In this document: piece after piece, positions 4,365 to 64,000 of the stretch
Numbering within the stretch: position 1 is the first letter of the stretch
Layout: each line of letters begins with the position of its first letter
Origin: an uncultured Bacteroidales bacterium
GTDB taxonomy: Bacteria > Bacteroidota > Bacteroidia > Bacteroidales > DTU049
DNA: 64,000 nt
Direction of reading: 5' to 3'
NCBI GenBank assembly: GCA_964551645.1
Contig: CAZKDV010000001.1
Coordinates: 17,065 to 81,064 of the forward strand
Notes under the pieces: generated by a model
The model's input: only the letters and a program-made list of their open reading frames with translations
Told to the model about the DNA's origin: nothing
The model's database searches: none
Made by a program: the position numbers and the translations under genes

Positions 4365-4392
4365 AACTCTATTTTTTTTATTAATTAAAAAA

Positions 4393-4418
4393 AGGGAGTA
4401 CCTTATAAAGCACTCCCT
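4393..4418 (-). terminator. Rho-independent terminator after the BNR-repeat cargo gene
   Basis: Stem agggagt (4393-4399) / actccct (4412-4418). On the minus strand it is followed by tttttttaatt, 13 nt after the stop at 4431. Confidence 0.6.
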
Positions 4419-4430
4419 ATAAAATCACTA

Positions 4431-7250
4431 TTATTGTTTAATAAACTTTCCTGTATAATAAAATTCGACATTTGATACTTGTATAAAGTATAGTCCCTTA
4501 GGTAAATCCGAAATATTTACTGAATTAGTTTTGCTTCCTCCTGCAACAACTTGATTTGCCACCATATTGCCATTAACTCCGAAAATAGAAATTTTAATAT
4601 CAGAGTTAGTTTTAGGAATATCAAAACTTATCATATCGTGTGCAGGGTTAGGATAAACAGATATTATATTATTATCTAAATTAGATGCTGTTTCATTAGC
4701 TTCTGGGATATTAACCAAACTAAATGATTCGAATACTCCTCTCCCGTGTGTGCCTGCATAAACAACTCCGTAATTAGTTACGCCGGGAAACATAAATGTT
4801 TGTTGTTTCAAGTCATAAACTGGAACATTTGGAAATCCACTTTCAGTATCTGTTGACCATTGTGGAGAAGGTACAGTAATATTATCCGTAACAAAAATTC
4901 CGAACTCAGTTCCAGCAATAACTCTATTAGGGTTGCTTAAATCAAAAATTACTGAATATACAGGTATTTTTGGTAAGTTTCCTTGTTTTTGAACAAAAGT
5001 AGGTTCTTCACTTAATGCATTAGCTGAATAATAAACATAGAAATTATTGCTATAGTTGCCTAAAACAATAATAACTTTTTCAGGATTATTTGGGTCAATA
5101 GCAACTTTATTAACGGCTCTATTTCCTATGCCTGCAATATTTAATTTCTTTACTTCAATCACACTATGCGTACTTGCTACACTAGCACTTAAAGAGTCAT
5201 TTGCAAAGTTTAAATTTGAAATTCTATATACATTACCATTGGTAGTGCCAACAAACAAATAATTTCCGCATTGACTAATAGCCATACTTTGCGTAGTGCC
5301 ATCAATATCAGCTATTTGAAACCATTTTGGCTGTCCTGAGAATTTATGGGATTCTCTTGTCATAAATACTTTATTTGTAGCTCCAAGATATAGTTTTGCA
5401 GTAATAATATCTTGTACTCTCAATGTATCATCTTCAATCATATCATTTTCAATAACACATGGAAATGGGTATGAACTATTGCTACTTAAAGCATAAATAG
5501 TAGCTCCTGCCAAAACTTTTTCTCCTGTATGTGTGTATGTAACAGAATCGGGGCTAAAGTAGTCGTCAATTTTTTCATGTAAAACAATTGGAGTAACAAA
5601 TGAAGCAAAACTTGCATTACCTGGAGCAGGACTTAAACCTTGCATATAATCATCATAAAAAGAAGCTAATGTTGTAGCAGTTCTGTTAGGTGTACGGTAC
5701 AAAGAACCGTAGTATGAAGTCATAAACAATAAATCGGAGTTAATATGTGAGATAGCTGAATAACCACCATCATTACTTGATAAATAACTTGCCTTTCCAT
5801 CTATAAGTCCTTTTCTTTCAAGGAACAAAGTTCCATTATCTTGTGTTCCGCCTAAAATTTCACCTGTAGGACCAATTCCTATAGCATAAAATTGTGTTGA
5901 AACAAAGTTTCTATTCACCGTTTCAAAAGACTTTCCACCATCAACACTTTTTGAAATACCGCCACTTGTAGCAAAGTACATAATTTTTGGATTATCGTGA
6001 TTAAATACATAATCATGGTGGTCTGAATGTATGTAAGAAGAGCTAGTTGAACTTAAATATCCAGAAGATGCAACTTCCCAATTTCCATTTTCCTCCCAAA
6101 CCCACATATTAACACCACCAACATATACTTTATTTTCATTTGTTGGATGAATTCTAATAACATTATCGTATCTTCCTTGTGAACCAAGAGGGTTAAAACT
6201 ATCACTTCCACCTGGACCAACAATTTCCCAAGTATCTCCAGCATTTTTTGTTCTATATATGTTATGTAAAGAACCATTAGTTTTAGCTGCACAAGCATAA
6301 ATATAGTTTGGATTGCTTGGGGCAATATCAAGTTCTATTCTTGAAATGCCAGAAGTTGGAAGCATATTTCCACCTGTCGAATTAGTTTTGTAAGTTTGTC
6401 CTCCGTCTTTTGAAATTAAGACTCTATTTCCTACTACTAATGCAATTACTTTTCCGTCTTTATGAATATCTACATCGTTTGCTTCAAGATTTTTATAAGC
6501 ATTTGAGAAATTTTCAATATTAATGTCTGTTAATGGATTAATCCATGTTTTTCCACCATCTGAGCTTTTTCTAAATCCTCTTTGTGTAGCTGCATAAATA
6601 TCTCCATTGGGGTGTGCTGCTATTTTATACACATATTCCCAAGCAATATCAGAAGAAGGAGAAGTATTTGACAAATGCACAAATTCAGTTCCTGTAGCAT
6701 CTGTAGATTTAAATATTCCTTGTCCTACGAATCCTGTTCCGCCTGCATTACTAGCCATAACATTAGCAAAACCTTCGCCAGTGCCGAAATATAGTGTACC
6801 ATCATAAGCTTGCGTAATACAGCTTATGATAAGACTTTCATTATGATCATTTATTTTAAACCATGATTGCGCACCATTAGTAGTTTTCCAAAGACCACCA
6901 GAAACAGCACCTGCATATAAAGTATTAGAATTATTTCTATCAACTATAAGTGCTCTAACTCGACCTGCAATATTTGTTGGACCAACAGATTCCCATACTA
7001 AATTAGTATTTTTTGCAGCTTTTAGCTTTTTTAAATCGCTAATGGAATTATAATAATCTTCATAGTTTACTTCTTTTGTTATTTGATTATTCCGAATTGC
7101 TGCATAATACTCCATCGCATTATGAATACCCAAAATTGGTTCACTTTTTGGGATGTACTTTTCGTTTGAATTTATTTGTGCTGACAATGTAGAAAAACAT
7201 GCAAGTGCAGCAAAAACTAGCGTAAAAATAAAAGTTGTTCTTTTGTTCAT
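4431..7250 (-). CDS. BNR/Asp-box repeat (sortilin/VPS10-like beta-propeller) protein, T9SS cargo with type A CTD
   Basis: Asp-box motifs SSDGGKTW, SKDGGQTY, TKNAGDTW and SVDGGKSF. The signal peptide MNKRTTFIFTLVFAALACFSTLSAQ starts at the ATG at 7250, whereas the track start at 7289 is TTG. The C-terminus is VYPNPAHDMISFDI...GLYFIQV. Confidence 0.8.
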   Translation of the reverse strand: MNKRTTFIFTLVFAALACFSTLSAQINSNEKYIPKSEPILGIHNAMEYYAAIRNNQITKEVNYEDYYNSISDLKKLKAAKNTNLVWESVGPTNIAGRVRALIVDRNNSNTLYAGAVSGGLWKTTNGAQSWFKINDHNESLIISCITQAYDGTLYFGTGEGFANVMASNAGGTGFVGQGIFKSTDATGTEFVHLSNTSPSSDIAWEYVYKIAAHPNGDIYAATQRGFRKSSDGGKTWINPLTDINIENFSNAYKNLEANDVDIHKDGKVIALVVGNRVLISKDGGQTYKTNSTGGNMLPTSGISRIELDIAPSNPNYIYACAAKTNGSLHNIYRTKNAGDTWEIVGPGGSDSFNPLGSQGRYDNVIRIHPTNENKVYVGGVNMWVWEENGNWEVASSGYLSSTSSSYIHSDHHDYVFNHDNPKIMYFATSGGISKSVDGGKSFETVNRNFVSTQFYAIGIGPTGEILGGTQDNGTLFLERKGLIDGKASYLSSNDGGYSAISHINSDLLFMTSYYGSLYRTPNRTATTLASFYDDYMQGLSPAPGNASFASFVTPIVLHEKIDDYFSPDSVTYTHTGEKVLAGATIYALSSNSSYPFPCVIENDMIEDDTLRVQDIITAKLYLGATNKVFMTRESHKFSGQPKWFQIADIDGTTQSMAISQCGNYLFVGTTNGNVYRISNLNFANDSLSASVASTHSVIEVKKLNIAGIGNRAVNKVAIDPNNPEKVIIVLGNYSNNFYVYYSANALSEEPTFVQKQGNLPKIPVYSVIFDLSNPNRVIAGTEFGIFVTDNITVPSPQWSTDTESGFPNVPVYDLKQQTFMFPGVTNYGVVYAGTHGRGVFESFSLVNIPEANETASNLDNNIISVYPNPAHDMISFDIPKTNSDIKISIFGVNGNMVANQVVAGGSKTNSVNISDLPKGLYFIQVSNVEFYYTGKFIKQ
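4434..4667 (-). other. Type A T9SS C-terminal sorting domain (about 78 aa)
   Basis: IISVYPNPAHDMISFDIPKTNSDIKISIFGVNGNMV...LPKGLYFIQVSNVEFYYTGKFIKQ. Confidence 0.8.
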
Positions 7251-7315
7251 AACTAATTGTAATTTATATTTCACTAAATTAAATGGCAAAGGTAATGTAA
7301 TTTTTCAAAACCAGA

Positions 7316-49933: not shown

Positions 49934-52465
49934 TTAATAAATTATTGAAATTGTGCCCCTATACTTTTTAGCATGCGAACCAAAGTTAGCCTTAATAAAA
50001 TAAACATAAACTCCTTGTGGAACTTTTTGATTTATGTTATCCCCATATTGATATGTGCCGTCCCATTTTGCATTATTGATATTTTCTGCAAAAAACACAA
50101 TATTTCCCCACTTATCGTAAACATACATTTCAAAATCATCAGCTTGTATATTTGTTGCTAAAGGCATAAAATAGTCATTAATGCCGTCTCCATCAGGAGT
50201 AAAAGCATTTGGGATATACAAAGCAACTAATGGTTTGATTTGTATTGTTTTACATATAGTATCTAAACATCCCCACTGATTGCTAACTATTTGACAAACT
50301 GAAAACTCACCAGGTGATGTAAATGCATGGCTAGGGTTTTGCTCTATTGAGTGATTATCCTTAATATCATTAAAATCCCAATTCCATGAAACTGCTCCTA
50401 ATGATTGGTCAGAGAACAAAATTGTGGACTCTTCTTCGCTTGCAATACTAGACGATGGCTTAAAATTAGCTTTAGGTTTTGGAAAAACTGTTATATAATC
50501 AGTTAAAACAAGTATATTATCACAGCCTAAACTAGTAACAGTTAGAGATACTGGGTAAGAACCTGAATTTACATAAGTGTATGTGGGAGTTGTAGCACTT
50601 GAAGTAGCTCCATCTCCAAAATCCCATTTATATGAACCAGAATCACTTTGGTTAGAAAAAGTAATCTGTAATGGCATACACCCCGTTGTTGATTCTGTAA
50701 AAAAACTAACATTAGGAATTGGAACAATATCAACTTCAAAAGTATCAATAGCAAAACAAGCATTTGCATCTATAACTTGGATAGTTTGTACTCCTCCACT
50801 TAAGTTAGATGCTGTTTCTGTTTTTTCTCCACTTTCCCACGAGTAAGAATAGCTGGCTGTGCCACCTGTAACAATAGCCATAGCACTTCCATCTGATTTT
50901 CCTTCACAAACAGATGTTATATTACTTGCAACAACATTTAACACATCAGGTTCAACTAGTACACCCGTAAGAACTTGTTGGCACATATCTGCAGAAGTAA
51001 CCGTAACGGTATATGCTCCATCAGCCAAATTATCAAGACTTGAGTCGGTAGAATTATCAAACCATACATATTGAAAAGGAGCTTCGCCTTCCTTAATATT
51101 TACACTTATACTTCCATTGCTATCTCCATTACAGAGTGGATGTTTAATGCTTAACTCAGCTGACAGCACTCCAAAGTTTGGCACATTTATAGACTGCTTT
51201 AATGGACATTCGCCATTCGGACCAGTTACTGTTACATTATAAGTACCTTCTTTTAAATTGTAAGCATTGGGAGTATTGTCAGTAGTATGTTCCCAAGTAT
51301 AAACATGGGGCTGAACTCCACCTGTGGTTTGAAGTTCGATAGAACCTATTCCTTGTTGGCATGTATCACTCTTAACGGTGTAAACAATATCTATATCGCT
51401 CACATCGTCTATAGTAGCACTTCCAGCTGTAGAGGCAGGTGGACTTTGGCTATCTGTGATAGTTACAGAATATATTCCGGCAAATAAGCCTGTTACTATA
51501 TGCGGATTATCAGATGTTGTAAAACTGTTGAAATATCCACTACTTCCAGTAATTTCATAATGGTACGGAGAAGGTGAAGATATTGCAATAGGAACTTCTA
51601 ACGATAATTTACCTTTTCCTACAGAGCATGTGTCTTGAAATGGAGTTACAACAAGATTCGCACACGAAATACAATTCCCATCATTACATCTGTCCACTCT
51701 GTTAGGTCCAATACTTGGAGCTACATTTGGCTGAAAATCTCCCCCATCGGGAATGCGGCTAAATGTTTTTCCCATTTCAATGCTATTCCCTTGTCCTAAA
51801 TAAATTATCGGATCTTTATCATAATACATTCCTGTAGCCGATTTTAAGTTAGTACCCAAATATGCAATAGGAATACATGGGCTTAAACCAAAGTCATTAC
51901 CTACAGAAGAAACATTATCTTCATAATTTGACCAATAAACAGCAGCATGCGTTGAACCATCCGGATTGTATATAGCAATCCAACCTTGTCCATTTGGCAA
52001 AAACCAAGTTTCTGAATAATTTTGACCATCTTCACAAATACACAAGTAGTCCGAAGGTAGATAATCCCTTAACTTAATATCAATTGAATTACTCAAATAT
52101 GCGTCAGCACAAGCATTGCAAGTTTCATCTGCACCACCGATTGTCAAAAAACCTCCTGCCGGAACAACTGTTCCCGGAGGAAAACAAAAAGAACCACCAA
52201 CACAATCACTCCCTCCGTCAATATCTCCGGTTTTACTAGCTATTAGCCAGCCACTTATGTCAATATCTTTAGTACAATCAGGATTATACAACTCAATATA
52301 TTCTCTGCCCAAATTAGGATTATCAATATCAAGCATACTTTGACACGGATCTTGCGTAGATGATGGTCCTGGGTTGAACATCACCTCATTTATAATTATT
52401 TGTTGAGCAGAAATACTGCTTACTAAAAGAAAAGTAAAAATAAATAAAAAATAATTATATTTCAT
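49934..52465 (-). CDS. Lamin-tail-domain / SprB-repeat / PKD surface protein, T9SS cargo with type B CTD
   Basis: Signal peptide MKYNYFLFIFTFLLVSSISAQ from the ATG at 52465. LTD (IIINEVMFNP...EYIELYNP...GWLI), about four SprB-type repeats (C.G..(D/N)GSI...Y.Y.W...G.Y.VTV.D...C) and two PKD domains (WDFGDG, WNWDF). The C-terminus is IPNAFTPDGDGINDYF...DKWGNIVF...WDG....GVYVYF. Confidence 0.85.
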   Translation of the reverse strand: MKYNYFLFIFTFLLVSSISAQQIIINEVMFNPGPSSTQDPCQSMLDIDNPNLGREYIELYNPDCTKDIDISGWLIASKTGDIDGGSDCVGGSFCFPPGTVVPAGGFLTIGGADETCNACADAYLSNSIDIKLRDYLPSDYLCICEDGQNYSETWFLPNGQGWIAIYNPDGSTHAAVYWSNYEDNVSSVGNDFGLSPCIPIAYLGTNLKSATGMYYDKDPIIYLGQGNSIEMGKTFSRIPDGGDFQPNVAPSIGPNRVDRCNDGNCISCANLVVTPFQDTCSVGKGKLSLEVPIAISSPSPYHYEITGSSGYFNSFTTSDNPHIVTGLFAGIYSVTITDSQSPPASTAGSATIDDVSDIDIVYTVKSDTCQQGIGSIELQTTGGVQPHVYTWEHTTDNTPNAYNLKEGTYNVTVTGPNGECPLKQSINVPNFGVLSAELSIKHPLCNGDSNGSISVNIKEGEAPFQYVWFDNSTDSSLDNLADGAYTVTVTSADMCQQVLTGVLVEPDVLNVVASNITSVCEGKSDGSAMAIVTGGTASYSYSWESGEKTETASNLSGGVQTIQVIDANACFAIDTFEVDIVPIPNVSFFTESTTGCMPLQITFSNQSDSGSYKWDFGDGATSSATTPTYTYVNSGSYPVSLTVTSLGCDNILVLTDYITVFPKPKANFKPSSSIASEEESTILFSDQSLGAVSWNWDFNDIKDNHSIEQNPSHAFTSPGEFSVCQIVSNQWGCLDTICKTIQIKPLVALYIPNAFTPDGDGINDYFMPLATNIQADDFEMYVYDKWGNIVFFAENINNAKWDGTYQYGDNINQKVPQGVYVYFIKANFGSHAKKYRGTISIIY
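49937..50221 (-). other. Type B T9SS C-terminal domain (gliding-motility-associated CTD, about 95 aa)
   Basis: LYIPNAFTPDGDGINDYFMP...YVYDKWGNIVF...KWDGTY...VPQGVYVYFIKA... Confidence 0.8.
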
Positions 52466-52513
52466 TCGATTGATATTAAAAAACAACCTTTATATTAACT
52501 AAATTATTTGATG

Positions 52514-52583: not shown

Positions 52584-55500
52584 TTATCTTATTATTGTCA
52601 GAGACGACTTATGCTCCTTGTCATAATAGTAAAACACATAGTAATAAGTTCCATCTGGCAAGTTGCCGCCATCCCAATCATTCTGATAATTGGTTTGTTC
52701 AAAAACTTTATTTCCCCAACGATTAAAGACAACTAATTTAGTGTTTGGAATTTTTTCGGCATTTGTTATTTCAAGTTTATCATTTATACCATCTCCATTC
52801 GGAGTTATTACATTGGGAAATTTATTATCAATAATTTTAATTTCTTTAATAATTGTATCTGCACAACCATAATTGTTTGACAATATCAGAGTTACAGTAT
52901 ATGATGCATCATCGCTTGGATATTTATGAATTGTTGAATTTGGTTCATTGTTATTTTCGCCGTCTCCAAAATCCCAATTCCAATATTGTGCATCAGAAGT
53001 AGATGTAAATGTTATTTCTGGATTATCGGCTGTGCCATAATCAGGAGAAAAAGTAAAATCTGCTATTGGTTGCGGATATGCTTCAATATAATTTGTTATT
53101 TTAAGAGTATCCTTACAACCATAAGTATTTGTAACTAATAGCGTTACTGTATATTTACCTTCAGGATATGTATTTGAAGGATTTTGTTGTGTTGATGTGC
53201 TAGCGTCTCCAAAATCCCAATTCCATTCAATTATTGAATTGTCTTGTGAAACATCTACAAACTCAACATAAAGAGGTTCGCAGCCATTTGTAACATTTGA
53301 CGAAAAATCAACTTCCGGTTTAGGATTTACAACAACATATACAGAATCAATACCTTTGCAATTTGATTTATCTGTTACAGTAACTATATATGAAGTTGAT
53401 GATGATGGAGAAACACTTATTTGTTCTGTTTGCTGATTAGAGTTCCACATAAAATTTGGATTTTCTGCTGTTGTGGATACGCTAAGCAAAATTGATTCTC
53501 CCATACACAATTCTGGATTTTTGGGTTGAACTTGAACTGTAAATGCTTCATGCACAACAATTTCAATATTAGCTGTTGAACTACAAAAATTTTCGTCGGT
53601 TCCTGTTACGCTATATATTGTTGTTTCGGAAGGACTTATATTATGAGAATCTCCTGCCCCTAAATTATTATCCCAAACATAAACAGTGCCACCAGATGCT
53701 ACTATTGTTGTTTGCTCTCCTACACAAATTGAATTTGGGTCTGCACTTGCCACAATTTCAGGTAGTGGTGCTACTGTTATCGTAATTGAAGCTGTATTTT
53801 GACAATCATTGCTTGCTGTTGCTGTTACATTGTAAGTAGTTGTTGTTGTCGGGGATATAATATGAGTAGCACTTGCCGGCAAGTCATTATCCCATGCATA
53901 ATTTACGCCACCTTGTGCGGTGATAGTTGTTGACTCTCCCATGCAAATTATATTTTTTTCTGCCGAAATAACAATATCGGGAGCCGGATAAACAGTAAGT
54001 TCTGTAGATGAAGTAGCAATACAACCACCTTCATCTGTAACTGTAACTGTATATGTACCAGACATTGCTGTTGTAACATTGCTTATAGTATTATTAGAAG
54101 AAGTACTTGAAAAGTTATTTGGACCATTCCATTTATATTTATGGTTTTCCAGATTAGTTGCTTCAAATGTAAATGTTTCACCTTGACACATAGCAGCATC
54201 AGCAGAAGTAGAAATGTCAAAAGTTACATTTTTCACTTCAACACATGCAGTAAGTGTATTGTTTTCTGTATCAGTAACGGTAACACAATAAGTACCTTCG
54301 CACAAACCAACAGCCGTTTGTGTAGTTTGAGCCATTCCATCATTCCATTTATATGTATAGGGAGCTTCACCACCTGAAACAATTGCAGATGCAGTACCCG
54401 TACAAGTAATTTCTGGTTCGGGGTCGCAAACAGAATTGCAAAAACCGATTGTTTGGTTTTCTCCATAAGAAGACCAAGCTCCACCATCAGGAATTCTCAT
54501 ATAACTCAATCCTGTTGCCGGAGTGCTATAAGTAATAATTGTTTTTCTTTCTGAGGGAATATTATCATAAGGCAACAAGCTTCCGGCATAGCCACAAGAG
54601 CCTATAGCACCCGGATTACACGGATAACATGACATACATGAATTTGATTGACTTCCCCATGAAATAGCGTCTTGAGGCACTCCATTTCTATCATAAAAAG
54701 CAAACCAACCACCTGCATTTGGAAACCACAATCTTGAACCACCACCTAAACATACTCTAGACGGATCATCTACAACAATCTCAACAGTTTTTCCTCCATT
54801 TTGCACCAAATATTGGGAATTAACGGCAGGTGCATTAACTCCTCTTATCACACAAAAACCTTGAGGAGGAATAATAGTGCCTTCTGGAATTACATATCCT
54901 CCGGGAAAATCTTTTTGCGAAAAAATTCCATCTTGATCTTTCGCATTATTTCCAAGAAAATAACATGAAATATCAATTGATTGACATCTGTCCGGGTTAT
55001 ACAATTCTATCCACTCCCCGCCACGACTATCCGGACTTTTACTATAAATAGAACCATCACCCGTATTGGGTGATAGCATAACTTCATTAATCAAAATTGA
55101 AGGTCCATCATAATTGCAACCAAAACCATCACATTTTGTATTTTCGGTAGAACTCATTGATAATGAAAAATTTGATGTAGGTGTATAAAACATTCGCACT
55201 TCATCAACAGAAAAAGCAGGATCGTCTCCACCACTCACATTATTGTCAAACATGAAAGCAAATCGTAAATCTGCTTGATTATCAAATTCTGGATTAACGA
55301 ATGTTGCAAAAGTCCAATTTGATACATTTGTATAATTTGCACCCAAATCTTTCCACGAAGTTCCGCCATCTATGCTATACCAAACTGAGCCTTTTGCTCC
55401 ATTACAAAGCCACCAAAAAGAAAGTGTTACATCGCTAATGCCAGAAGTATTTATCCCTGCATTCATTTTGGTAAAATTTGCACCTGCTTCACCACCAACA

Positions 55501-55862
55501 ATAGATGAAGAAAACCCATCAACAAAATTTGCATTACCAACTCCATCTGCCAAAGCAGCACCGCAAACAATGTGTAAATATTGACTCTGAGGGCTATTTG
55601 TTATCTGTGCAGGCTGATTGGGGGTACTGGGAATTGTTACGGGGAAAAAAACGCCTAAGTTATATGTGCCACCAGCATAGGTATTGTTAATTATCCATTG
55701 ATTTGCACCATTACTGCCAACACTACCCATGTCAGAAGTATTTAACGACCAATTTGCACTCCCGCTTTCAAAATTATCATAAAACAATTCAACCTCCGGA
55801 AGTTGAGAAAAAACAAACTGACCTGCCAAAATTAAAATAAATAAAAGATAAAGTTTTTTCAT
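52584..55862 (-). CDS. Lamin-tail-domain / Ig-like-repeat / PKD surface protein, T9SS cargo with type B CTD
   Basis: Signal peptide MKKLYLLFILILAGQFVFSQ from the ATG at 55862; the ATG at 55886 sits only 3 nt from the -7 box. It has an N-terminal lectin/MAM-like region and an LTD (ILINEVMLSP...EWIELYNPD). These are followed by one SprB-type repeat and four Ig-like repeats (C.GE...I.A.GG..Y.W...). It ends with two PKD domains (WNWDFGD) and the C-terminus FPNVITPNGDGINDKL...FNRWGNKVF...WDG...DGTYYYV. Confidence 0.85.
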   Translation of the reverse strand: MKKLYLLFILILAGQFVFSQLPEVELFYDNFESGSANWSLNTSDMGSVGSNGANQWIINNTYAGGTYNLGVFFPVTIPSTPNQPAQITNSPQSQYLHIVCGAALADGVGNANFVDGFSSSIVGGEAGANFTKMNAGINTSGISDVTLSFWWLCNGAKGSVWYSIDGGTSWKDLGANYTNVSNWTFATFVNPEFDNQADLRFAFMFDNNVSGGDDPAFSVDEVRMFYTPTSNFSLSMSSTENTKCDGFGCNYDGPSILINEVMLSPNTGDGSIYSKSPDSRGGEWIELYNPDRCQSIDISCYFLGNNAKDQDGIFSQKDFPGGYVIPEGTIIPPQGFCVIRGVNAPAVNSQYLVQNGGKTVEIVVDDPSRVCLGGGSRLWFPNAGGWFAFYDRNGVPQDAISWGSQSNSCMSCYPCNPGAIGSCGYAGSLLPYDNIPSERKTIITYSTPATGLSYMRIPDGGAWSSYGENQTIGFCNSVCDPEPEITCTGTASAIVSGGEAPYTYKWNDGMAQTTQTAVGLCEGTYCVTVTDTENNTLTACVEVKNVTFDISTSADAAMCQGETFTFEATNLENHKYKWNGPNNFSSTSSNNTISNVTTAMSGTYTVTVTDEGGCIATSSTELTVYPAPDIVISAEKNIICMGESTTITAQGGVNYAWDNDLPASATHIISPTTTTTYNVTATASNDCQNTASITITVAPLPEIVASADPNSICVGEQTTIVASGGTVYVWDNNLGAGDSHNISPSETTIYSVTGTDENFCSSTANIEIVVHEAFTVQVQPKNPELCMGESILLSVSTTAENPNFMWNSNQQTEQISVSPSSSTSYIVTVTDKSNCKGIDSVYVVVNPKPEVDFSSNVTNGCEPLYVEFVDVSQDNSIIEWNWDFGDASTSTQQNPSNTYPEGKYTVTLLVTNTYGCKDTLKITNYIEAYPQPIADFTFSPDYGTADNPEITFTSTSDAQYWNWDFGDGENNNEPNSTIHKYPSDDASYTVTLILSNNYGCADTIIKEIKIIDNKFPNVITPNGDGINDKLEITNAEKIPNTKLVVFNRWGNKVFEQTNYQNDWDGGNLPDGTYYYVFYYYDKEHKSSLTIIR
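52587..52823 (-). other. Type B T9SS C-terminal domain (about 79 aa)
   Basis: KFPNVITPNGDGINDKLEI...VVFNRWGNKVFE...DWDGGNLPDGTYYYVFYY... Confidence 0.8.
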
Positions 55863-55888
55863 AAGATGTGTTTTCAATATATACATTA

Positions 55889-56488: not shown

Positions 56489-57139
56489 TTAATTATATTC
56501 CTCAATACATTGAATTTCGTTGCCGTATTCATAACACTTTACTTCCTTAATATTGGAGTTTTTTTCAAACCATATTTCTTTTCCATGCTTTTGATTGTCA
56601 ACAAAATATGTTTTCACTAAAGTATCTCGCGTATTATAGTAAAAAGATATATGTTGACCTGTACCATTTGTATATTCGCCAAAACCTGAAAAAATTCCAT
56701 TAAAATCATAATATTTCCACTCTCCGTCAAACATATCCTTAACAAAGCCACCTTCAATCTTCAATTGTCCATTTTCGTGTAGTTCTTTGTATTTTCCGTT
56801 TTTCAGACCTTTTTCATAACTCATTGAAATTTTTAAATTTCCATTTTCGTAGTAAGACAAAAACTCACCATTCAGAGTATCCATAATATAATGCTCCATT
56901 CCTTCAATATGACCATCATAATACCATCGCTTCATTTCTCCGTTTAATTTCCCATAGTAATATGTTGTTTCAAGTTGTTTATTCCCATTTGCGTGATAAT
57001 ATACTGCTTTTCCGTGCATAAGATTGTTCTTAAATTCAACTTCTGACCTCACATTGCCATTTGGATAATATTGGGTAACTTGCTTTTTACAAGAAAAGCT
57101 CAAACACGCAAAAACACAAATAATTAGAACTCTATACAT
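56489..57139 (-). CDS. MORN-repeat-variant (YwqK-like) lipoprotein
   Basis: Lipoprotein-type signal VFACLSFSCKK. It carries repeated YYxNGxxxxExxYxxGxxxGxxxxWYxxG units (for example YYPNGNVRSEVEFKNNLMHGKAVYYHANGN). Confidence 0.75.
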   Translation of the reverse strand: MYRVLIICVFACLSFSCKKQVTQYYPNGNVRSEVEFKNNLMHGKAVYYHANGNKQLETTYYYGKLNGEMKRWYYDGHIEGMEHYIMDTLNGEFLSYYENGNLKISMSYEKGLKNGKYKELHENGQLKIEGGFVKDMFDGEWKYYDFNGIFSGFGEYTNGTGQHISFYYNTRDTLVKTYFVDNQKHGKEIWFEKNSNIKEVKCYEYGNEIQCIEEYN

Positions 57140-57145
57140 TGTTAT

Positions 57146-59485
57146 TTATTCAGCTAATTGTAGAAAAAACGAAAATGTTGAACCTTGATTCGGAATACTT
57201 TTTACTTTTATTTTTGTATTATGCTTCAACAAAAATTCTTTACAAATCAACAAACCTAATCCACTACCTTTTTCTGAAGCAGTTCCGCGAGTTGATTTAC
57301 TTTTGTTGACATTAAAAAGATTTTGAACCTGCTCTTGACTCATTCCAACACCATTATCAATTATTGCAATTTGAATTCTTTTTTGCACTTTTTCAGCTTT
57401 GATTATTATTTTTTCTTTTGGGGGTGAAAACTTCAAAGCATTGGATATCAAATTCCTAAAAACTGTTGAAATCATGGACTTATCAGCTAATATCTGAATT
57501 GTTGAGTCAAAAACCTTAAGAATTTCCACTTGTTTAGAAGCTGCATGACTTGCAAATAAACTAATTGCATCATCAACTAGTTCGGACAAGTAAATTGGTT
57601 CTGGATTGTACCTAATTTTTCCTGTTTGAGACATTGACCACTGCAAAAGATTTTCTAACAAATAATATATTTGGTCGGTAGTTTTCTCTAAATCTTCTGT
57701 AAGTTCTTGAATCTCAGTTTTTTTCAACTTATTTATATCTCTTTTAATAAGTCGGGTAAAACTAACAACCGAAGCAAATGGACTTCTAAGATCATGAGCT
57801 ATGATAGAAAATAATTTGTCTTTAGTTGAATTAAGAGACATTAGTTCTTCTTCTGACTTTTTAAGTTTCTCATTTGCAGATACAAGCGAATTATTTAGTT
57901 TGTTTAGTTCTTGTTTCTGTTCTTCAAGACTTAAGTTCATGCTGACAAGCAGTTTGTTTGCAGAAGATATTTCATTTTTTTGCTCAATAAGTAATCTATT
58001 TTTCTTTCTGATGAAAAATATCAAATAAACTGCAAACACCAATAAGCAAAGCAAAACAACAGCTCCGATAGTTATATTTCGTTTCACGGCAATAGCTTGC
58101 TCTTTTAAGACTTGTTCTAACTTATGAGACTTTTTGAGAATTTCTAAATCGTTTTGTTGTTTTGATAGTTCAAAAATTAAATCTATAGTTTGAAAAGTAC
58201 TTGCCTCTTTAAGTTCAAAAAATCTTATTGCATGAGTCTTGCTTTTAAGCATGTACTCATAAGCAGCTTTATAATTATTTAGATTGAATTCAACTTTTGC
58301 TAAATGCGTATATATCTCGCTAATCAGGTCGTCTCTATTTGTGTAAATACCAATGCTAATGCTTTTTAGAAGGGTTTCTTTTGATTTAAAATTTCTTCCT
58401 TGTAACAAAAGATAGTGTCCAATTCTCATCAAAGTTTGAGCTTCATTCTCAAGATCATTTATATTGCGTGCAATAACAAGATTCCTGTCAAGATACAATA
58501 ATGCTTTATTAATACTATTTTTACTTGCGTATGCTGATGCAATTTCATAATTCAAATTTAAAATTTGTAAAAAGTTGTTTTCTTGCTCTGCCAACAATTT
58601 CCCTCGCATAAAATAATTCAATGCTTTATCAATATTGTTTTGAATCAGATTAGTTTTTCCAAGTTCTATTAAAGAAGATATTTCGCCTGTTAAATTATTA
58701 TTTTGTTTATAAAATTTATTTGCTAACAAATAATTTGTTATTGCTTCATCATACTGTTGATTTTCTCGCAATAAAGTTCCTAAATTGATATATAAAATAG
58801 GCAAATAGGTAATTTCTTTTATGTTTCCTGCAATTTCAATGGCAGTATTATATTTTTCTATTGCTTTGGATTTTTGATCGAGTAAAGCATAAATCTGCCC
58901 AAGATTTATCAAAGACATTACTATTTGTTGCTCGTCTGAAATAGTTTTACTTATATCAAAAGCTTTTAGTCCATATTGCAATGCTTGATAATAATTATTG
59001 TTTGCCAAATATAGTGTGCTATATGCTTGATAAGTGTCGTATAAGCCTTTATTATTAGCATTTTTGGAGAATATTGACTCAGCTTGAGAAAAATGAAAAA
59101 CTGCATTTTGAATATCTCCTAACAAATTAAAAGTTTTTCCTATATCTATAGAAATTCTTGCAACTTCATTGTGTTTGTTCGCTTTTTTTGCAACCGACAT
59201 TGCTCTATTATAATAATCAAGTGCATTGCGATAATGTCCATAGCGGATTTCAATTAACCCAAGATTAGCTAAAGAAGTAATTACACCATTAGTGTATGAT
59301 TTTTTGTTCGAAATCTGAAGTGCTTCTAATAAATTAGATATTGCTTGGTTTGAATCGGTAACAGATAATTCAAGTGCCTTTGCATTCATTTGAATTATTT
59401 TGTTTGTATCAATTGCAAAAATTTGAGCTTTTAATACAAAAACAATAATAAAACATACAAATATACGAACTTGAGTGTATTTCAC
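57146..59485 (-). CDS. TPR-repeat sensor histidine kinase
   Basis: N-terminal signal/TM, about 10 TPR-like repeats, a TM (ITIGAVVLLCLLVFAVYLIFFI) and a coiled coil. H-box FSIIAHDLRSP and HATPase motifs DNGVGM and GSGLGL follow. The start is set to the GTG at 59485 because the TTG at 59509 lies inside the -7 box; start confidence is moderate. Confidence 0.85.
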   Translation of the reverse strand: MKYTQVRIFVCFIIVFVLKAQIFAIDTNKIIQMNAKALELSVTDSNQAISNLLEALQISNKKSYTNGVITSLANLGLIEIRYGHYRNALDYYNRAMSVAKKANKHNEVARISIDIGKTFNLLGDIQNAVFHFSQAESIFSKNANNKGLYDTYQAYSTLYLANNNYYQALQYGLKAFDISKTISDEQQIVMSLINLGQIYALLDQKSKAIEKYNTAIEIAGNIKEITYLPILYINLGTLLRENQQYDEAITNYLLANKFYKQNNNLTGEISSLIELGKTNLIQNNIDKALNYFMRGKLLAEQENNFLQILNLNYEIASAYASKNSINKALLYLDRNLVIARNINDLENEAQTLMRIGHYLLLQGRNFKSKETLLKSISIGIYTNRDDLISEIYTHLAKVEFNLNNYKAAYEYMLKSKTHAIRFFELKEASTFQTIDLIFELSKQQNDLEILKKSHKLEQVLKEQAIAVKRNITIGAVVLLCLLVFAVYLIFFIRKKNRLLIEQKNEISSANKLLVSMNLSLEEQKQELNKLNNSLVSANEKLKKSEEELMSLNSTKDKLFSIIAHDLRSPFASVVSFTRLIKRDINKLKKTEIQELTEDLEKTTDQIYYLLENLLQWSMSQTGKIRYNPEPIYLSELVDDAISLFASHAASKQVEILKVFDSTIQILADKSMISTVFRNLISNALKFSPPKEKIIIKAEKVQKRIQIAIIDNGVGMSQEQVQNLFNVNKSKSTRGTASEKGSGLGLLICKEFLLKHNTKIKVKSIPNQGSTFSFFLQLAE

Positions 59486-59506
59486 TTTTTTTAAGAATAT
59501 AAAAAG

Positions 59507-59514
59507 CAAAAATA
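59507..59514 (-). promoter_or_regulatory. -7 promoter box TATTTTTG for the sensor kinase operon
   Basis: The plus-strand caaaaata is the reverse complement of TAnnTTTG, 22 nt upstream of the GTG at 59485. Confidence 0.4.
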
Positions 59515-59567
59515 TAAATAATTATTATTGTTATTTGGAATATTTGCTTGATTGGTAATCAAATAAA

Positions 59568-59602
59568 TATTTTTGTATATCTAATTTATTTTTGTAATTT
59601 TG
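59568..59602 (+). promoter_or_regulatory. Three closely spaced -7 boxes upstream of greA
   Basis: TATTTTTG (59568-59575), TATTTTTG (59587-59594) and TAATTTTG (59595-59602) all match TAnnTTTG. No further match lies between them and the greA ATG. Confidence 0.45.
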
Positions 59603-59609
59603 CAAAATA

Positions 59610-59656
59610 AACAAGAGGACCTCTCGCAAAAAAGGTCTTCTTGTTTTGTTTTTTAT
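59610..59656 (+). terminator. Terminator-like hairpin in the greA leader (possible attenuator)
   Basis: Stem aacaagaggacc (59610-59621) / ggtcttcttgtt (59634-59645), 12 bp with one G-T pair. It is followed by ttgttttttattt and lies between the -7 boxes and the greA ATG at 59682. Confidence 0.5.
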
Positions 59657-59681
59657 TTATATCTTTTATATATAAGTAGTT

Positions 59682-60164
59682 ATGGGAAAACCAGTATATT
59701 TTACAAAAGAAGGATTAAAGAAATTACAAGATGAACTTGAATATCTTGTTAATGTTGAGCGTGCTCGTATCTCACAACAAATTGCTGAAGCAAGAGACAA
59801 AGGAGACTTATCAGAAAATGCGGAATATGATGCAGCCAAAGAAGCACAAGCAATGCTTGGCTTGAGAATTGCCAAACTTCAAAATGCAGTCGGAAATGCA
59901 AGAATTATTGACGAATCGCAAATAAGCAATGAAGAAGTAAGACTGTTCACAATTGTAACAGTTAAAAATAAAACAGCAAAAAAAGATTTTATTTATACCA
60001 TAGTATCTGAAAATGAAACAGATATTAAAACACGAAAAATATCAATAAATTCACCTATTGGAACAGGATTGCTCGGTAAAAAAGTTGGAGATACAGTTAC
60101 AATTGATGTCCCAGCAGGAAAAATTGAACTTGAAATATTGTCAATTGAAGCAATGCAACTATGA
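59682..60164 (+). CDS. greA: Transcription elongation factor GreA
   Basis: The AEARDKGDLSENAEYDAAKE coiled-coil tip with acidic residues and a C-terminal FKBP-like domain; 160 aa. Confidence 0.93.
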   Translation: MGKPVYFTKEGLKKLQDELEYLVNVERARISQQIAEARDKGDLSENAEYDAAKEAQAMLGLRIAKLQNAVGNARIIDESQISNEEVRLFTIVTVKNKTAKKDFIYTIVSENETDIKTRKISINSPIGTGLLGKKVGDTVTIDVPAGKIELEILSIEAMQL

Positions 60165-60556
60165 GCAACTCTATATTTACAAAAATTATCAATAAGGAAA
60201 TTCCAGCATATATAATTCATGAAGATGAAAAACATATTGCTTTCTTAGATATTAACCCACTTGCCCAAGGACACACATTAGTAGTTCCTAAAATAGAGAT
60301 TGACTATATATTTGACTTGCCAACTGATGCCTATGAAAGTCTTTGGATTTTTGCAAAAAAAATTGCATCTGCTATTGATAAATTTAGTGGTGCCGAAAGA
60401 ATTGGAATAGCGGTGATAGGACTTGAGGTTCCACATGCACATATTCATCTTGTGCCAATTAACGGTATTCATGATATTGATTTCTCAAAACCAAAACTCA
60501 AACTAAATCCTGAAGAGTTTCAAAATATTTTAACAGAAATACGCAAAAACTTATAA
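60161..60556 (+). CDS. HIT-family (histidine triad) nucleotide hydrolase
   Basis: The HAHIHLVP triad. The start ATG overlaps the greA stop (ATGA). Confidence 0.9.
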   Translation: MSNSIFTKIINKEIPAYIIHEDEKHIAFLDINPLAQGHTLVVPKIEIDYIFDLPTDAYESLWIFAKKIASAIDKFSGAERIGIAVIGLEVPHAHIHLVPINGIHDIDFSKPKLKLNPEEFQNILTEIRKNL

Positions 60557-60657
60557 TAACCTACTTATTGTGCAATTTGAAAAATAAATCAAAAATTGTT
60601 CAATTTCCCGAAGAAATTCAGATATTCATCAATTTCTAATAAATTGAACTGATTGCT

Positions 60658-60948
60658 ATGAGATATAACATATTAAGCAATTTGCTAAGTGATTTACATT
60701 TAAGACCCATGTTCCACTATAAAGAGCAACCTATATTGTTGCATGTTTTAGTCTGCTTTATGGCACTTGTTATATCTAAGCATATAGAGATAAAAACAAA
60801 TTACTCAATAAAGAAGTTTGTTAATGAGGCGAAAAAGATTACAGATGCACGCTTATACAATAAAATAACAAATAAAGAAGTGAAGATTAGAACAGAAATA
60901 ACAAATACAATGACAGAAATTTTAAAAAAATTAAATTTGTCGCACTAA
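60658..60948 (+). mobile_element. 5-prime-truncated remnant of an IS4-superfamily (IS1634-like) DDE transposase gene
   Basis: LRPMFHYKEQPILLHVLVCFMALVISKHIE matches the conserved C-terminal block (L..RPI.H.......I..H......AL) of these transposases. Only about 96 codons remain, with an in-frame stop at 60640 just upstream and no N-terminal or DDE core. Confidence 0.55.
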
Positions 60949-61180
60949 AACGGACAAATCAGGAGTTAAATTTATTTGATAAGTAAAATTAATTTACTGA
61001 TTAATCATAAAAACACAACTTATGTAATGAGTCATATGTTTATACACTTTTGGCAAAAACAGCGTGAACTACTAAAAAACTGAATTCGATATAAACTTTT
61101 AAGGTATCAAAAATAAATACAATAAAAGTTATTGAAACAAGACTAGTAATAAATTTCTTTTTTTATCACATAAAAACGAG

Positions 61181-62428
61181 TTAATATTGTTCTCGGATTT
61201 GATTTTCAATTTTTGGAAAAATTGTTAAAAAGTCTTCATAACATTTAATTTGGTTTAATTCTTTCTCATAGGTTTGCAAGTCTACTTCGTCAAGATAGGT
61301 GCAGCCTGAACCTGCAAAATCAAAATAAAACATATTTGTATAATATTGATTTGTTATATCAGTCTTAGAAATTACAACTATAAATTCTCGTTCAACATGG
61401 TGGTCTAATTGAGCTTTGTATTTAAACACGCTAAGTACAGAGTCTCTGCCACCTAGCGCAAAAGTGTAAATATAATCAAGGTAATTGTAATAAAACTTTT
61501 TATTACAAAGAGATAATTTAATTGGAACGCAAATCTCAATCCATTTATCATCATTTGATTCTACAAGTCTAAATCCTATAGTTTGTATATAATTATTAAA
61601 TTCACGTCCATCTGTTAGATTTAAGTCTTTAAGAGAAAAAGTTTTATGGGTTTTTGAGTATTTTAAATCTAAATCTTCTTCATACCAATTTAACCAAAGA
61701 TCGTAATCAATCGTGTACCCCAAATAATAATTTATTGTGTTTGAATCAGCATTATTAATGGTTTTAGGTTTAGGAATTTCTTCTTTACCTGAAAAGAAAA
61801 TATAAGTAAATCCGTAATTTAAGTCATTAATTTTAATTTTCTTATTTTTATAATCATTATAAAAAGTAAGTAAAAAATCTTCTTTATTAATAGGTTTTTT
61901 AAATTCATATTTCTTATAAAGTCTAATAAAAGATTTTTTTTCTTTAGAATATATAAATGAATCATATAAGAAATTATTATTTGTTCTTTTTGTAATTATA
62001 GTTAAAAAATATTCTTTATTTCCATTTATTTCAAAATCATGTATAAAAACAGATATAAATTCATCTCCTTCGATTGAAAAACTTTCAATTCTTTTTATTT
62101 TATCGCTTGTCCGATAAACTAAAATAATCTCTAAATCTCTGTCTATGTCAATACTGTAGTTAGACCATGTAAATAGATATTCATATTTTTCATTAGGGTT
62201 TTTTAAATCTCCTTCTCCAAAATTATATATGCTATCAATTGCACCATATGTCCCAAAACAAATATCTTCTGCCCATAATGGATTGTTTCCATTTACAACA
62301 ATATTAGGATTTTGAATATGGGATTCTTCAGGTTCATAGGTTTCGTCATTATTTGCATGTCTCGTACATGCAATATTAAATAATAATAGGTTTATTACCA
62401 GTAAAGTACAAGCAAAATATTTAAACAT
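61181..62428 (-). CDS. Putative lipoprotein, unknown family, paralog 1 (415 aa)
   Basis: Signal LLVINLLLFNIAC. It is collinear with the upstream paralog (EKYEYLF, DKWIEIC, DSVLSVFKYK, REFIVVISKT, YEDFLTIFPKIE). It starts 28 nt after paralog 2 with no promoter box in between. Confidence 0.75.
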   Translation of the reverse strand: MFKYFACTLLVINLLLFNIACTRHANNDETYEPEESHIQNPNIVVNGNNPLWAEDICFGTYGAIDSIYNFGEGDLKNPNEKYEYLFTWSNYSIDIDRDLEIILVYRTSDKIKRIESFSIEGDEFISVFIHDFEINGNKEYFLTIITKRTNNNFLYDSFIYSKEKKSFIRLYKKYEFKKPINKEDFLLTFYNDYKNKKIKINDLNYGFTYIFFSGKEEIPKPKTINNADSNTINYYLGYTIDYDLWLNWYEEDLDLKYSKTHKTFSLKDLNLTDGREFNNYIQTIGFRLVESNDDKWIEICVPIKLSLCNKKFYYNYLDYIYTFALGGRDSVLSVFKYKAQLDHHVEREFIVVISKTDITNQYYTNMFYFDFAGSGCTYLDEVDLQTYEKELNQIKCYEDFLTIFPKIENQIREQY

Positions 62429-62456
62429 CTCTATTAGTATTAATTTTTATAAATTA

Positions 62457-63743
62457 TTAAAAAGAATATTCTATTATTAAATCATCCTCTATTTTTGGAA
62501 AAACTGTTATAAAATCTTCATAAGATTTTATATTATTTAATTTATCCTCACAGCCTTTAATAGTTAACTGCGTAAGGTAACAACAACCTGTTGCACCACA
62601 ATCAGCTTCAAATAAATCAATATAGTGTTTGTTTGTTGAATTTGTTTTAGATATAACAACAATAAATTCTCTATTATTCTTATAATTATATTTAAAAGTG
62701 CTTAAAACAGAATCCTTCCCTTTTAGAATATGAGTATCTAAGTAATAAATATTATTGCAATAATCAAATTTTATACAAACTGCTTTATCATGTAGATAAC
62801 AAAGTTCAATCCACTTATCGTAATTATTTTCTGCATTTCTAAACGCAATAACTTCTATGGCATAACTATAATCTTCCTTAAACTTAAAATTTTTAGCTGT
62901 AAAAATATTATGAGTTTTAGTATATTTAATTCCTTGAATTTTATCTTCCCAGTTTAACCACGCTTCATTTATACCAAAGCTGTTGAAGGTTTCACTTTCG
63001 TCAGTTTTTATAGATTCTAAATTATTATTAATATTTGGGTCGCTTATTGGTTCTGTTCCAGCAAAAAATACATATTCAATATGTGTATCTATTTCATTAA
63101 TTTCAAAATTATTACTTAGATTTTGGGCATTAAATAAACTGATAAAATCATCTTTGCTACTATAATGATTTAGTAAATAATAATGAGGTTCATTTTCTTC
63201 TATAATATCTTCGTAAATATTGTTCTCAACAGAATATTTAAAAGTATTTGAATAATACTCCTCATCACTTTTTGTTATTATAGAAATAAAAAATATTTTT
63301 TTACCATTTTGCTCTAAAGTATGTGAAAATATATCAACATAATCATCACCAAATAAAATAAGATCTTGTATTTGTTTAACCCTATCATCTACCTGTGAAA
63401 CAATAGTGATTTTCAGTGTATTATAACATGGATATGTAATATTTTTTTTTGTGACAAATATATATTCATATTTTTCCAAAGGATTATCTGTAATTTCTTT
63501 TCCATAAGAATAGATTTTTATAATATTTGAATAAGCATCTTTATATCCAAATAAATTACATACATCGCTTGCCCAGCAAGAGTTATTATCATATAATACA
63601 GTATCATATAATACAGAATGTGAAATATGAATTTTTACTACTTCATCTTTTAAATCATTATTTTCACTGTTTTTACAAGCAAAATTAAGTAATAAAATGA
63701 TTGCTAAAAGCAAGTAATAAACAAAATACTTATTAGTTTTCAT
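62457..63743 (-). CDS. Putative lipoprotein, unknown family, paralog 2 (428 aa)
   Basis: Signal LLLAIILLLNFAC. It shares ordered motifs with paralog 1 (EKYEYIF, DKWIELC, DSVLSTFKYN, REFIVVISKT, YEDFITVFPKIE). Confidence 0.75.
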   Translation of the reverse strand: MKTNKYFVYYLLLAIILLLNFACKNSENNDLKDEVVKIHISHSVLYDTVLYDNNSCWASDVCNLFGYKDAYSNIIKIYSYGKEITDNPLEKYEYIFVTKKNITYPCYNTLKITIVSQVDDRVKQIQDLILFGDDYVDIFSHTLEQNGKKIFFISIITKSDEEYYSNTFKYSVENNIYEDIIEENEPHYYLLNHYSSKDDFISLFNAQNLSNNFEINEIDTHIEYVFFAGTEPISDPNINNNLESIKTDESETFNSFGINEAWLNWEDKIQGIKYTKTHNIFTAKNFKFKEDYSYAIEVIAFRNAENNYDKWIELCYLHDKAVCIKFDYCNNIYYLDTHILKGKDSVLSTFKYNYKNNREFIVVISKTNSTNKHYIDLFEADCGATGCCYLTQLTIKGCEDKLNNIKSYEDFITVFPKIEDDLIIEYSF

Positions 63744-63781
63744 AGTTTTAAAAAGCTGAATTTTTAATACTCATTAAGCAA

Positions 63782-63789
63782 CAAAAATA
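63782..63789 (-). promoter_or_regulatory. -7 promoter box TATTTTTG for the lipoprotein paralog pair
   Basis: The plus-strand caaaaata is the reverse complement of TAnnTTTG, 39 nt upstream of the ATG at 63743. Confidence 0.4.
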
Positions 63790-64000
63790 AGAATTTTTAT
63801 TAATTTACAAGTGTAAATATCGTTATATTTTGGAAATAAAAGTACTGTTTTTAACTATTTATAAATTTTATAAAGTCATTTATCCCAGATTCCACAATAG
63901 GAATTTTTTGAGTTAAATCTATATTACGAAACATAAAAATACAGTTATAAATTATTGATATACAGTAAGTAAAGTTGATGTTTTTCTAATGCGTAGCGTT

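Follow-up and report, generated by a model that had tools for sequence, protein, structure and literature searches.

Tandem genes for two-module lipoprotein-type proteins in a Bacteroidales bacterium and their rare protein family

Bacteroidota encode very many lipoproteins without an assigned function. We analysed two adjacent genes of this kind, gene A and gene B, whose products (P0001 and P0002) carry lipoprotein-type signals followed by two tandem modules. The genes lie at the end of a stretch of 64,000 nucleotides (nt) from an uncultured Bacteroidales bacterium (contig CAZKDV010000001.1 of assembly GCA_964551645.1, positions 17,065 to 81,064), which is referred to here as the window. SusE and SusF are Bacteroidota lipoproteins in which a flexible tether carries beta-rich repeated domains that arose by internal duplication and that have a non-catalytic binding role. 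They are surface-exposed and are encoded in polysaccharide utilisation loci beside SusC and SusD. The window proteins, as modelled, share with them the tether and the duplicated beta-rich domains, but the pair has no SusC/D neighbour, no acidic export signal and no Pfam match.

The lipocalins are a second point of comparison. One of them, Blc, is an outer-membrane lipoprotein. Like Blc, lipocalin-type prostaglandin D synthase (PGDS) and ZinT/YodA, the module is a domain of about 160 residues with the same predicted order of helices and strands, and proteins of this kind are its top Foldseek matches. However, these matches have E values of at least 0.12 and template modelling (TM) scores of at most 0.26, and there is no Pfam lipocalin match, so that membership is without support.

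AimA of Aeromonas veronii (PDB 6B7L) is a secreted protein with two calycin-like domains that are 17% identical, a complete C-terminal barrel and a partial N-terminal one (PMC6219842). Its taxonomic range is narrow, and beyond that range it lacks homologues by sequence (PMC6219842). The window proteins are similar in having two tandem, highly diverged domains, predicted to be beta meanders, of which the C-terminal one is complete and the N-terminal one degenerate, and in their narrow range. In contrast to AimA, which is a secreted soluble proteobacterial protein, they are of lipoprotein type. There is no sequence similarity, and AimA stands at rank 44 of the Foldseek matches (E 0.21, TM 0.09, non-significant). 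AimA may serve as a useful analogue, and is not a demonstrated relative.

The pair represents a new domain family inside a familiar kind of protein, the multi-domain Bacteroidota lipoproteins, which is a tidy annotation result and not a surprise. For this rare family the analysis provides module boundaries, diagnostic motifs, a duplication history and a confident model for which Foldseek finds no solved counterpart. We are highly confident of the anatomy of the proteins, their paralogy, their internal duplication and the novelty of the family, taken jointly.

Paralogy and internal duplication of the pair

An earlier note, made from the letters of this DNA alone, had described two co-oriented genes for proteins of 428 and 415 residues, 28 nt apart, as tandem paralogues with lipoprotein-type signals. 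Both open reading frames (ORFs) were confirmed on the minus strand. Their features are as follows, the modules having been placed with a module hidden Markov model (HMM).

62457-63743, minus strand: gene A (P0001), an intact ORF for a two-module lipoprotein-type protein of 428 residues
61181-62428, minus strand: gene B (P0002), an intact ORF for a two-module lipoprotein-type protein of 415 residues
62429-62456, minus strand: spacer of 28 nt between genes A and B
63675-63743, minus strand: signal peptide of gene A, residues 1-23, with the lipobox-like NFAC; Cys23 is the predicted lipidated residue
63102-63578, minus strand: N module of gene A, residues 56-214, a diverged copy that lacks the Cys pair
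62475-62972, minus strand: C module of gene A, residues 258-423, the archetypal copy (module HMM 96.8-100.9 bits)
61832-62269, minus strand: N module of gene B, residues 54-199
61187-61690, minus strand: C module of gene B, residues 247-414 (module HMM 92-96 bits)

The two proteins align collinearly from end to end (BLASTP, 155 of 430 identities or 36%, 57% positives, E 3e-75). The blocks that the note had listed as shared, EKYEY[IL]F, DKWIE[LI]C, DSVLS.FKY, REFIVVISKT and YEDF[IL]T[VI]FPKIE, are all present in both. Around the EKYEY block, 60 nt of DNA are still 72% identical between the genes, the two copies being spaced 1285 nt apart. The N modules of the paralogues are 33% identical and the C modules 45%, which indicates that the N module evolves faster. 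A neighbour-joining tree of 25 modules pairs the C module of P0001 with that of P0002 as its sister, and the gene duplication is therefore specific to the lineage of the window. The two genes are old paralogues that have diverged, and the lipoprotein family to which they belong is rare and undescribed.

Judged by profile comparison, the internal duplication proposed for each protein is real; it is detectable with family profiles and not from the two window proteins alone. The module HMM has 163 positions and was built from the C modules of P0003-P0008 and P0011 together with five single-module proteins, with no window sequences. The N half of P0001 reaches 22.7 bits in a collinear match to HMM positions 12-157 and the N half of P0002 reaches 17.0 bits, against 8.6 bits for the best of 2000 composition-preserving shuffles of the N halves. 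The C modules of the window score 96-101 bits with this model. When all N modules were compared by hhalign with all C modules and single-module proteins, the probability was 98.7% (E 3.1e-16, 129 aligned columns).

The module core is about 160 residues long and the linker between the N and C modules about 45. The note's estimate of a duplicated module of about 170-200 residues was thus right as to the duplication and too large as to the core. The C-terminal copy is the archetype, and occurs alone in lipoproteins of 219-241 residues from other Bacteroidota. Its Cys pair (Cys-Gly-x3-4-Cys) is near-invariant and brackets one hairpin loop, and one of its helices has the motif [KR]xYEDFxxxFPKI; the copy in gene A has SVF/FKY, FIVVISKT, C382-x4-C387/388 and the YEDFITVFPKI helix. 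The N module of the window lineage has lost the cysteines. As to register, EKYEYIF (strand 92-100) pairs with AIEVIAF (strand 296-305), and DKWIELC with LKITIVS. The first of the two ordered anchors that had been proposed, [ED]K[YW].[EY], is consequently off by one beta strand. The second, the strand-like block (FFISIITK.. with FIVVISKT..), is homologous, and its alignment of FFISIITKSDEEYYSNTF with FIVVISKTNSTNKHYIDLF is correct. A third anchor, DDFISLF with YEDFITVF, can be added between the N and C modules.

In the module tree the N modules stand apart from the C modules, and the single-module proteins group with the C modules. This tree gives the order of events as one old module duplication first and a lineage-specific tandem gene duplication much later.

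Could the internal similarity be chance in AT-rich, beta-strand-like sequence, each protein being one non-repetitive unit? Direct tests on the halves of the window proteins are what this explanation would predict: BLASTP of N half against C half is not significant (E at least 0.18), nor is hhalign on half-profiles of two sequences (P 0.19, and in another register), the Smith-Waterman score is reached by 28-113 of 500 shuffles, and hhalign with the four closest relatives only gives a probability of 26% (E 7e-4). The independent C-module HMM nevertheless places both N halves collinearly and far above 2000 shuffles, the family profile-profile comparison reaches E 3e-16, and AlphaFold2 gives the same order of secondary structure in both halves. 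There are also natural single-module proteins and relatives with obviously duplicated halves; in P0006, P0008, P0011 and the second paralogue of contig L015 both halves visibly share ..SVF..y....FIVVIsK...YY..iFE..C....C....F..vFP.YM. We consider chance similarity highly improbable. A further explanation, to which we give a negligible probability, would make the ORFs spurious frames, or frames in decay, within AT-rich intergenic DNA beside an insertion sequence (IS) element. The GC contents of 0.235 and 0.25, the adjacent IS remnant and the lack of annotation in any source might suggest it, but both ORFs are intact over more than 400 codons in DNA of 24% GC, homologues at 22-38% identity occur in unrelated assemblies, motifs and the Cys pair are conserved, the AlphaFold2 models are confident and the sequence is identical in four independent runs.

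The family and its genomic contexts

No described family was found for the proteins, as the note had also said. Pfam-A and NCBIfam searches with P0001 and P0002 gave nothing significant, and Pfam searches with 14 family members gave no recurrent family even at E 1. Lipocalin models in Pfam and NCBIfam matched neither window protein, nor any of the 14 members at E of 1 or less. The pair and module profiles had chance matches only (E about 0.3) among all PDB chain sequences. For P0001 and P0002, PADLOC gave nothing below E 0.02, and PHROGs gave matches at E of 0.005 or more only, to families of unknown function. Neither protein has an NCBIfam match to the sorting domains of the type IX secretion system (T9SS; TIGR04183 and TIGR04131), which four other window proteins match. 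Among 350,542 PDB chains, Foldseek found no significant match for the full P0001 model (best E 0.04, TM below 0.2), and the search with the AlphaFold model of one module, which the note had proposed, gave nothing significant in BFVD either.

An exhaustive HMMER scan, covering 1.84 billion representative sequences, yielded 14 clusters with E values of 1e-3 or less. They are grouped here by architecture.

P0001 and P0002: the window proteins, 428 and 415 residues
P0003, P0004, P0006-P0008 and P0011: other two-module relatives, full length, 414-443 residues
P0005: a two-module relative, N-terminally truncated, 341 residues
P0009, P0010 and P0012-P0014: five clusters of single-module proteins, 219-241 residues

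Two members came by other routes, so 14 clusters is a lower bound. One is a 221-residue lipoprotein from a Lentimicrobium sp. metagenome-assembled genome (JANJXJ010000131, L008 3424-4089), found by scanning genome contigs with a four-module alignment. The other, a second two-module paralogue, lies on contig L015 (Logan SRR29761456), 660 nt downstream of P0007; the two-module members of this contig are at 271-1524 and 2185-3399 with an unrelated 194-residue secreted protein between them. Both modules of this second member score equally against the C-module HMM, at about 62 bits each. A word-indexed protein search returned only the query, P0012 and P0015; it missed P0002, which is in the collection, and its result reflects low recall and not absence. 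Genome contigs scanned with the pair alignment and metagenome contigs scanned with a protein pattern gave no match, and viral contigs (IMG/VR) scanned with the four-module alignment held no relative.

The single-module relatives (P0009, P0010, P0012-P0015 and the Lentimicrobium protein) have the same module, with the motifs SVF, [IV]V[IV]ISK, YYT, E.CG...C and [KR].YEDF and HMM scores of 85-179 bits, and the same kind of lipoprotein signal. They carry one module, whereas the window proteins carry two, of which the N-terminal copy is degenerate. None of them is named or annotated in the sources searched. The same holds for P0001 and P0002, which have no annotation or name in any source searched; the exact P0001 protein is found in public assemblies, and P0002 likewise in a protein collection.

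A conserved operon partner was sought across nine loci and none was found. A Peptidase_M50B membrane protein adjoins the single-module proteins P0010 and P0014 (L021 3216-7383 and L022 1215-2594), with 35% identity between the loci, and a 186-residue cytoplasmic protein recurs upstream at L008 and L022 with 63% identity. Both neighbours belong to the single-module subclade only and are absent from the window. The genes upstream of P0010 include a Cas_NE0113-adenosine-deaminase fusion and an NB-ARC-like ATPase. P0004 (L011/L012) follows asparaginase and FUN14 genes, and within a few kilobases are AbiEi/AbiEii, a tyrosine integrase, a TIR protein and a NACHT/TPR protein; the surroundings of P0004 look like a mobile or defence island. 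P0015 (L004 4656-5330) and P0012 (L005 10001-10666) are near-identical, come from the same sample (ERZ1426827) and have entirely different neighbourhoods, which suggests recent duplication or mobility. Because several members lie in variable regions (the window pair, P0004 and P0010), the family has an accessory flavour, with no specific functional link.

Por_Secre_tail, GldM and GldL genes are found near other members. The window itself encodes PolA, UvrA and TopA, together with four T9SS cargo proteins of type A or B. The family is so far found in T9SS-bearing Bacteroidota wherever the context is readable.

Predicted structure, location and function

The AlphaFold2 model of full-length P0001, from a 14-sequence alignment, has a predicted local distance difference test (pLDDT) score of 81.0 and a predicted TM (pTM) score of 0.78. 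That of its C module (residues 258-428), from a 22-module alignment, has a pLDDT of 90.7 and a pTM of 0.87. In the full-length model only the tether at residues 26-43 falls under pLDDT 50, and the signal peptide is predicted as a helix. The predicted layout is a signal of the Sec/signal peptidase II type with a lipobox-like Cys, a disordered tether of about 30 residues and two tandem modules. As modelled, each module opens at its N-terminus with short strands and a pair of short helices, continues with seven long antiparallel strands in tight hairpins with turns of 2-5 residues, and closes with a short helix, a 14-residue C-terminal helix that bears the YEDF...FPKI motif and a final strand. 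C382 and C387/388 of P0001 are predicted to flank one hairpin loop; such placement of a near-invariant Cys pair suggests a disulfide staple and an extracytoplasmic location.

The N-terminus of P0001 reads MKTNK-YFVYYLLLAIILLL-NFAC and that of P0002 MFK-YFACTLLVINLLLF-NIAC, so the lipoprotein-type signals ending in N[FI]AC are as had been reported. In 16 of the 17 family members a hydrophobic N-terminus ends in x-x-[SAGCI]-C, the exception being the truncated P0005. The putative signals of P0001 and P0002 consist of a positively charged n-region followed by a hydrophobic h-region and by a lipobox whose last residue is Cys. In surface lipoproteins of Bacteroidota the export signal after Cys+1 is K-(D/E)2, Q-A-(D/E)2, SDDDD or SDDFE (PMC5080379). 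No member has an acidic run at positions +2 to +6 (P0001 has CKNSEN and P0002 CTRHAN). As no acidic export signal follows the Cys, the exported and lipidated protein would be expected to stay on the periplasmic side.

The best explanation overall, which we think rather probable, is that P0001 and P0002 are periplasm-facing two-module lipoproteins with a non-catalytic binding role in the envelope. For the non-catalytic binding role taken by itself the chances appear about even; it is suggested by the conserved positions, most of which are hydrophobic residues of the core, and by the lack of a match to any enzyme family. The two modules would be packed together in a fixed pseudo-dimer, imitating a homodimer that the single-module relatives would form, as the pTM of 0.78 may indicate. 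The module, a meander plus helix, is calycin-like in its modelled secondary-structure order, and lipocalin-type PGDS dominates its non-significant top Foldseek matches (TM 0.2-0.26), with ZinT/YodA also present. Binding of a small ligand in the manner of calycins is accordingly a tentative proposal. Given this layout, a small hydrophobic or envelope-derived ligand is the leading guess, with a partner protein as the alternative. The gene pair would be accessory and strain-variable, outside any conserved pathway.

Several points count against this explanation. In the search of PDB chains no significant match was found for the module (best E 0.12, TM at most 0.28), and the likeness to calycins lies in the order of secondary structure and not in superposition, so that it is a lead and not an assignment. 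A closed barrel, a pocket, the geometry of a disulfide and the packing of the modules are hypothetical. At position -3 both lipoboxes, NFAC and NIAC, have an atypical N, and lipidation and location alike are read from sequence rules. Genomic context, as read at the nine loci, points to no ligand or partner. Finally, the HMMER query profile was made from two sequences only, and the size and range of the family are lower bounds.

More specific accounts of the proteins were also considered. The modules might be true barrels of the calycin/lipocalin superfamily, acting as carriers of small hydrophobic ligands like Blc or the two-domain AimA. Their length of about 160 residues and the order of short N-terminal helices, +1-connected antiparallel strands, C-terminal helix and last strand would fit, 14 of the 20 top Foldseek PDB matches are lipocalin-type PGDS, with ZinT/YodA among the matches too, and AimA (6b7l) appears among those of the full model. 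Calycins are also able to keep their fold without sequence conservation, and AimA combines a complete C-terminal with a degenerate N-terminal domain (PMC6219842). All such matches are, however, non-significant (E 0.12-3, TM 0.16-0.26, root mean square deviation 12-14 A), no Pfam lipocalin model is found in 14 members even at E 1, and closure of the barrel is hypothetical; we regard true lipocalin barrels as unlikely. A module of an unseen fold, or a very remote calycin offshoot, is similarly doubtful as a full account. The family would then be a Bacteroidota-restricted envelope family whose functional unit is a pair of modules and whose accessory role, in variable genome islands, would be protection or the scavenging of ligands, the pair being a homodimer in the single-module members and a fused asymmetric pseudo-dimer in the window. 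If true, this would be a clear case of the transition from homodimer to fused pseudo-dimer with a degenerating copy. If the fold is new, or a ligand or partner is found, a new envelope domain family would be added.

Accessory protection of the envelope is the main alternative to small-ligand binding, and we judge it quite unlikely. The proteins would be phage-exclusion lipoproteins, or else orphan immunity or inhibitor lipoproteins that counter lytic enzymes or toxins acting in the periplasm, and their genes would be kept and duplicated in variable genome islands. Such a role is compatible with the patchy and rare distribution, with the lineage-specific tandem or near-tandem paralogues of the window and L015, and with the near-copies P0012 and P0015 in different contexts of one sample. 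The neighbourhoods of P0004 (AbiE, integrase and TIR/NACHT genes) and P0010 (Cas_NE0113-adenosine-deaminase and NB-ARC-like genes) would also suit it, as would the place of the pair at the lowest GC of the window, beside an IS1634 remnant and an assembly-breaking repeat. Yet none of the loci read has a toxin, type VI secretion, Rhs or polymorphic-toxin gene next to the family member, there is no PADLOC or PHROGs match and no relative on viral contigs, and the immediate neighbours of P0003 and P0004 look housekeeping. A foreign origin is without support in the GC content at third codon positions (GC3), which at 0.135 and 0.16 is near the 0.15-0.23 of neighbouring genes. Periplasm-facing lipoproteins with a non-catalytic binding role are the explanation that we prefer.

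Setting of the pair in the window

Two further features lie next to the pair.

63782-63789, minus strand: TATTTTTG, a -7 box-like motif of Bacteroidota type, candidate promoter of the pair by position only
60658-60948, plus strand: C-terminal remnant of an IS1634 transposase, a 96-residue ORF (NCBIfam NF033559, E 5.4e-15)

TATTTTTG sits 38 nt 5' of the ATG of gene A. The window has 145 matches to TANNTTTG, where 122 +/- 12 are expected, which is no over-representation, and the argument for a promoter is therefore positional only. Four further matches lie inside genes A and B on the same strand. The box had been described as single; it is the only one in the upstream intergenic DNA, but not when the genes are included. 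The 28-nt spacer contains no promoter box and no terminator, so co-transcription of genes A and B is likely, and from the sequence they are probably a two-gene operon.

The neighbours of the pair are the IS1634 remnant, HIT, GreA and a TPR histidine kinase. The remnant confirms the adjoining IS fragment that had been noticed; it spans positions 394-482 of 483 of the NF033559 model, is convergent with the gene pair and is a neighbour outside the lipoprotein operon. Beyond GreA and HIT, a TPR-HisKA-HATPase sensor kinase is encoded at 57146-59509 (minus strand), with no response regulator adjoining, and a MORN-repeat protein with a weak match to an LIC20035-family adhesin at 56489-57139 (minus strand).

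No part of the window is richer in AT than the one where the pair lies: GC falls to its lowest values, 0.24, 0.25 and 0.22, in the three terminal 1-kb bins that cover the pair, against a window mean of 0.307. The per-gene GC is 0.235 and 0.25 and the GC3 is 0.135 and 0.16. The low GC arises mainly at codon positions 1 and 2, and the proteins are rich in N, K, I, Y and F. Since GC3 is close to that of neighbouring genes, the low GC is mostly a matter of amino-acid composition. Horizontal transfer was considered on grounds of composition and is without support for the same reason.

Logan contigs from three runs (SRR27197504, DRR784970 and SRR8925752) match the window with 1 mismatch in 9.2 kb. 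A fourth run, SRR8925715, has identical sequence and covers 58256-62218 only. The shared end of the three contigs at nt 63924 points to a repeat, just upstream of the pair, at which assemblies break. Nothing in the final 257 nt (63744-64000) supports a continuation of the array beyond nt 64000: this segment has stops in all frames of both strands, and its family HMM scores are at most 5.6 bits. A third paralogue or pseudogene within it was rejected on the same grounds. Metagenome contigs scanned with the terminal 40 nt of the window gave no match.

Elsewhere in the window, adjacent genes at 49934-52486 and 52584-55886 (both minus strand) encode proteins of 850 and 1100 residues with T9SS type B sorting domains (TIGR04131), and two T9SS type A cargo proteins are encoded at 363-7289. 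With two cargo proteins of each type, the window belongs to a T9SS-bearing Bacteroidota chromosome. One of the ORFs, 363-4364 (minus strand), encodes a 1333-residue protein with a T9SS type A sorting domain. Within it, at 1785-3164, are three 300-nt direct repeats with a period of 540 nt, the later copies being 88% and 69% identical to the first, which gives this protein an internally repeated domain of about 180 residues.

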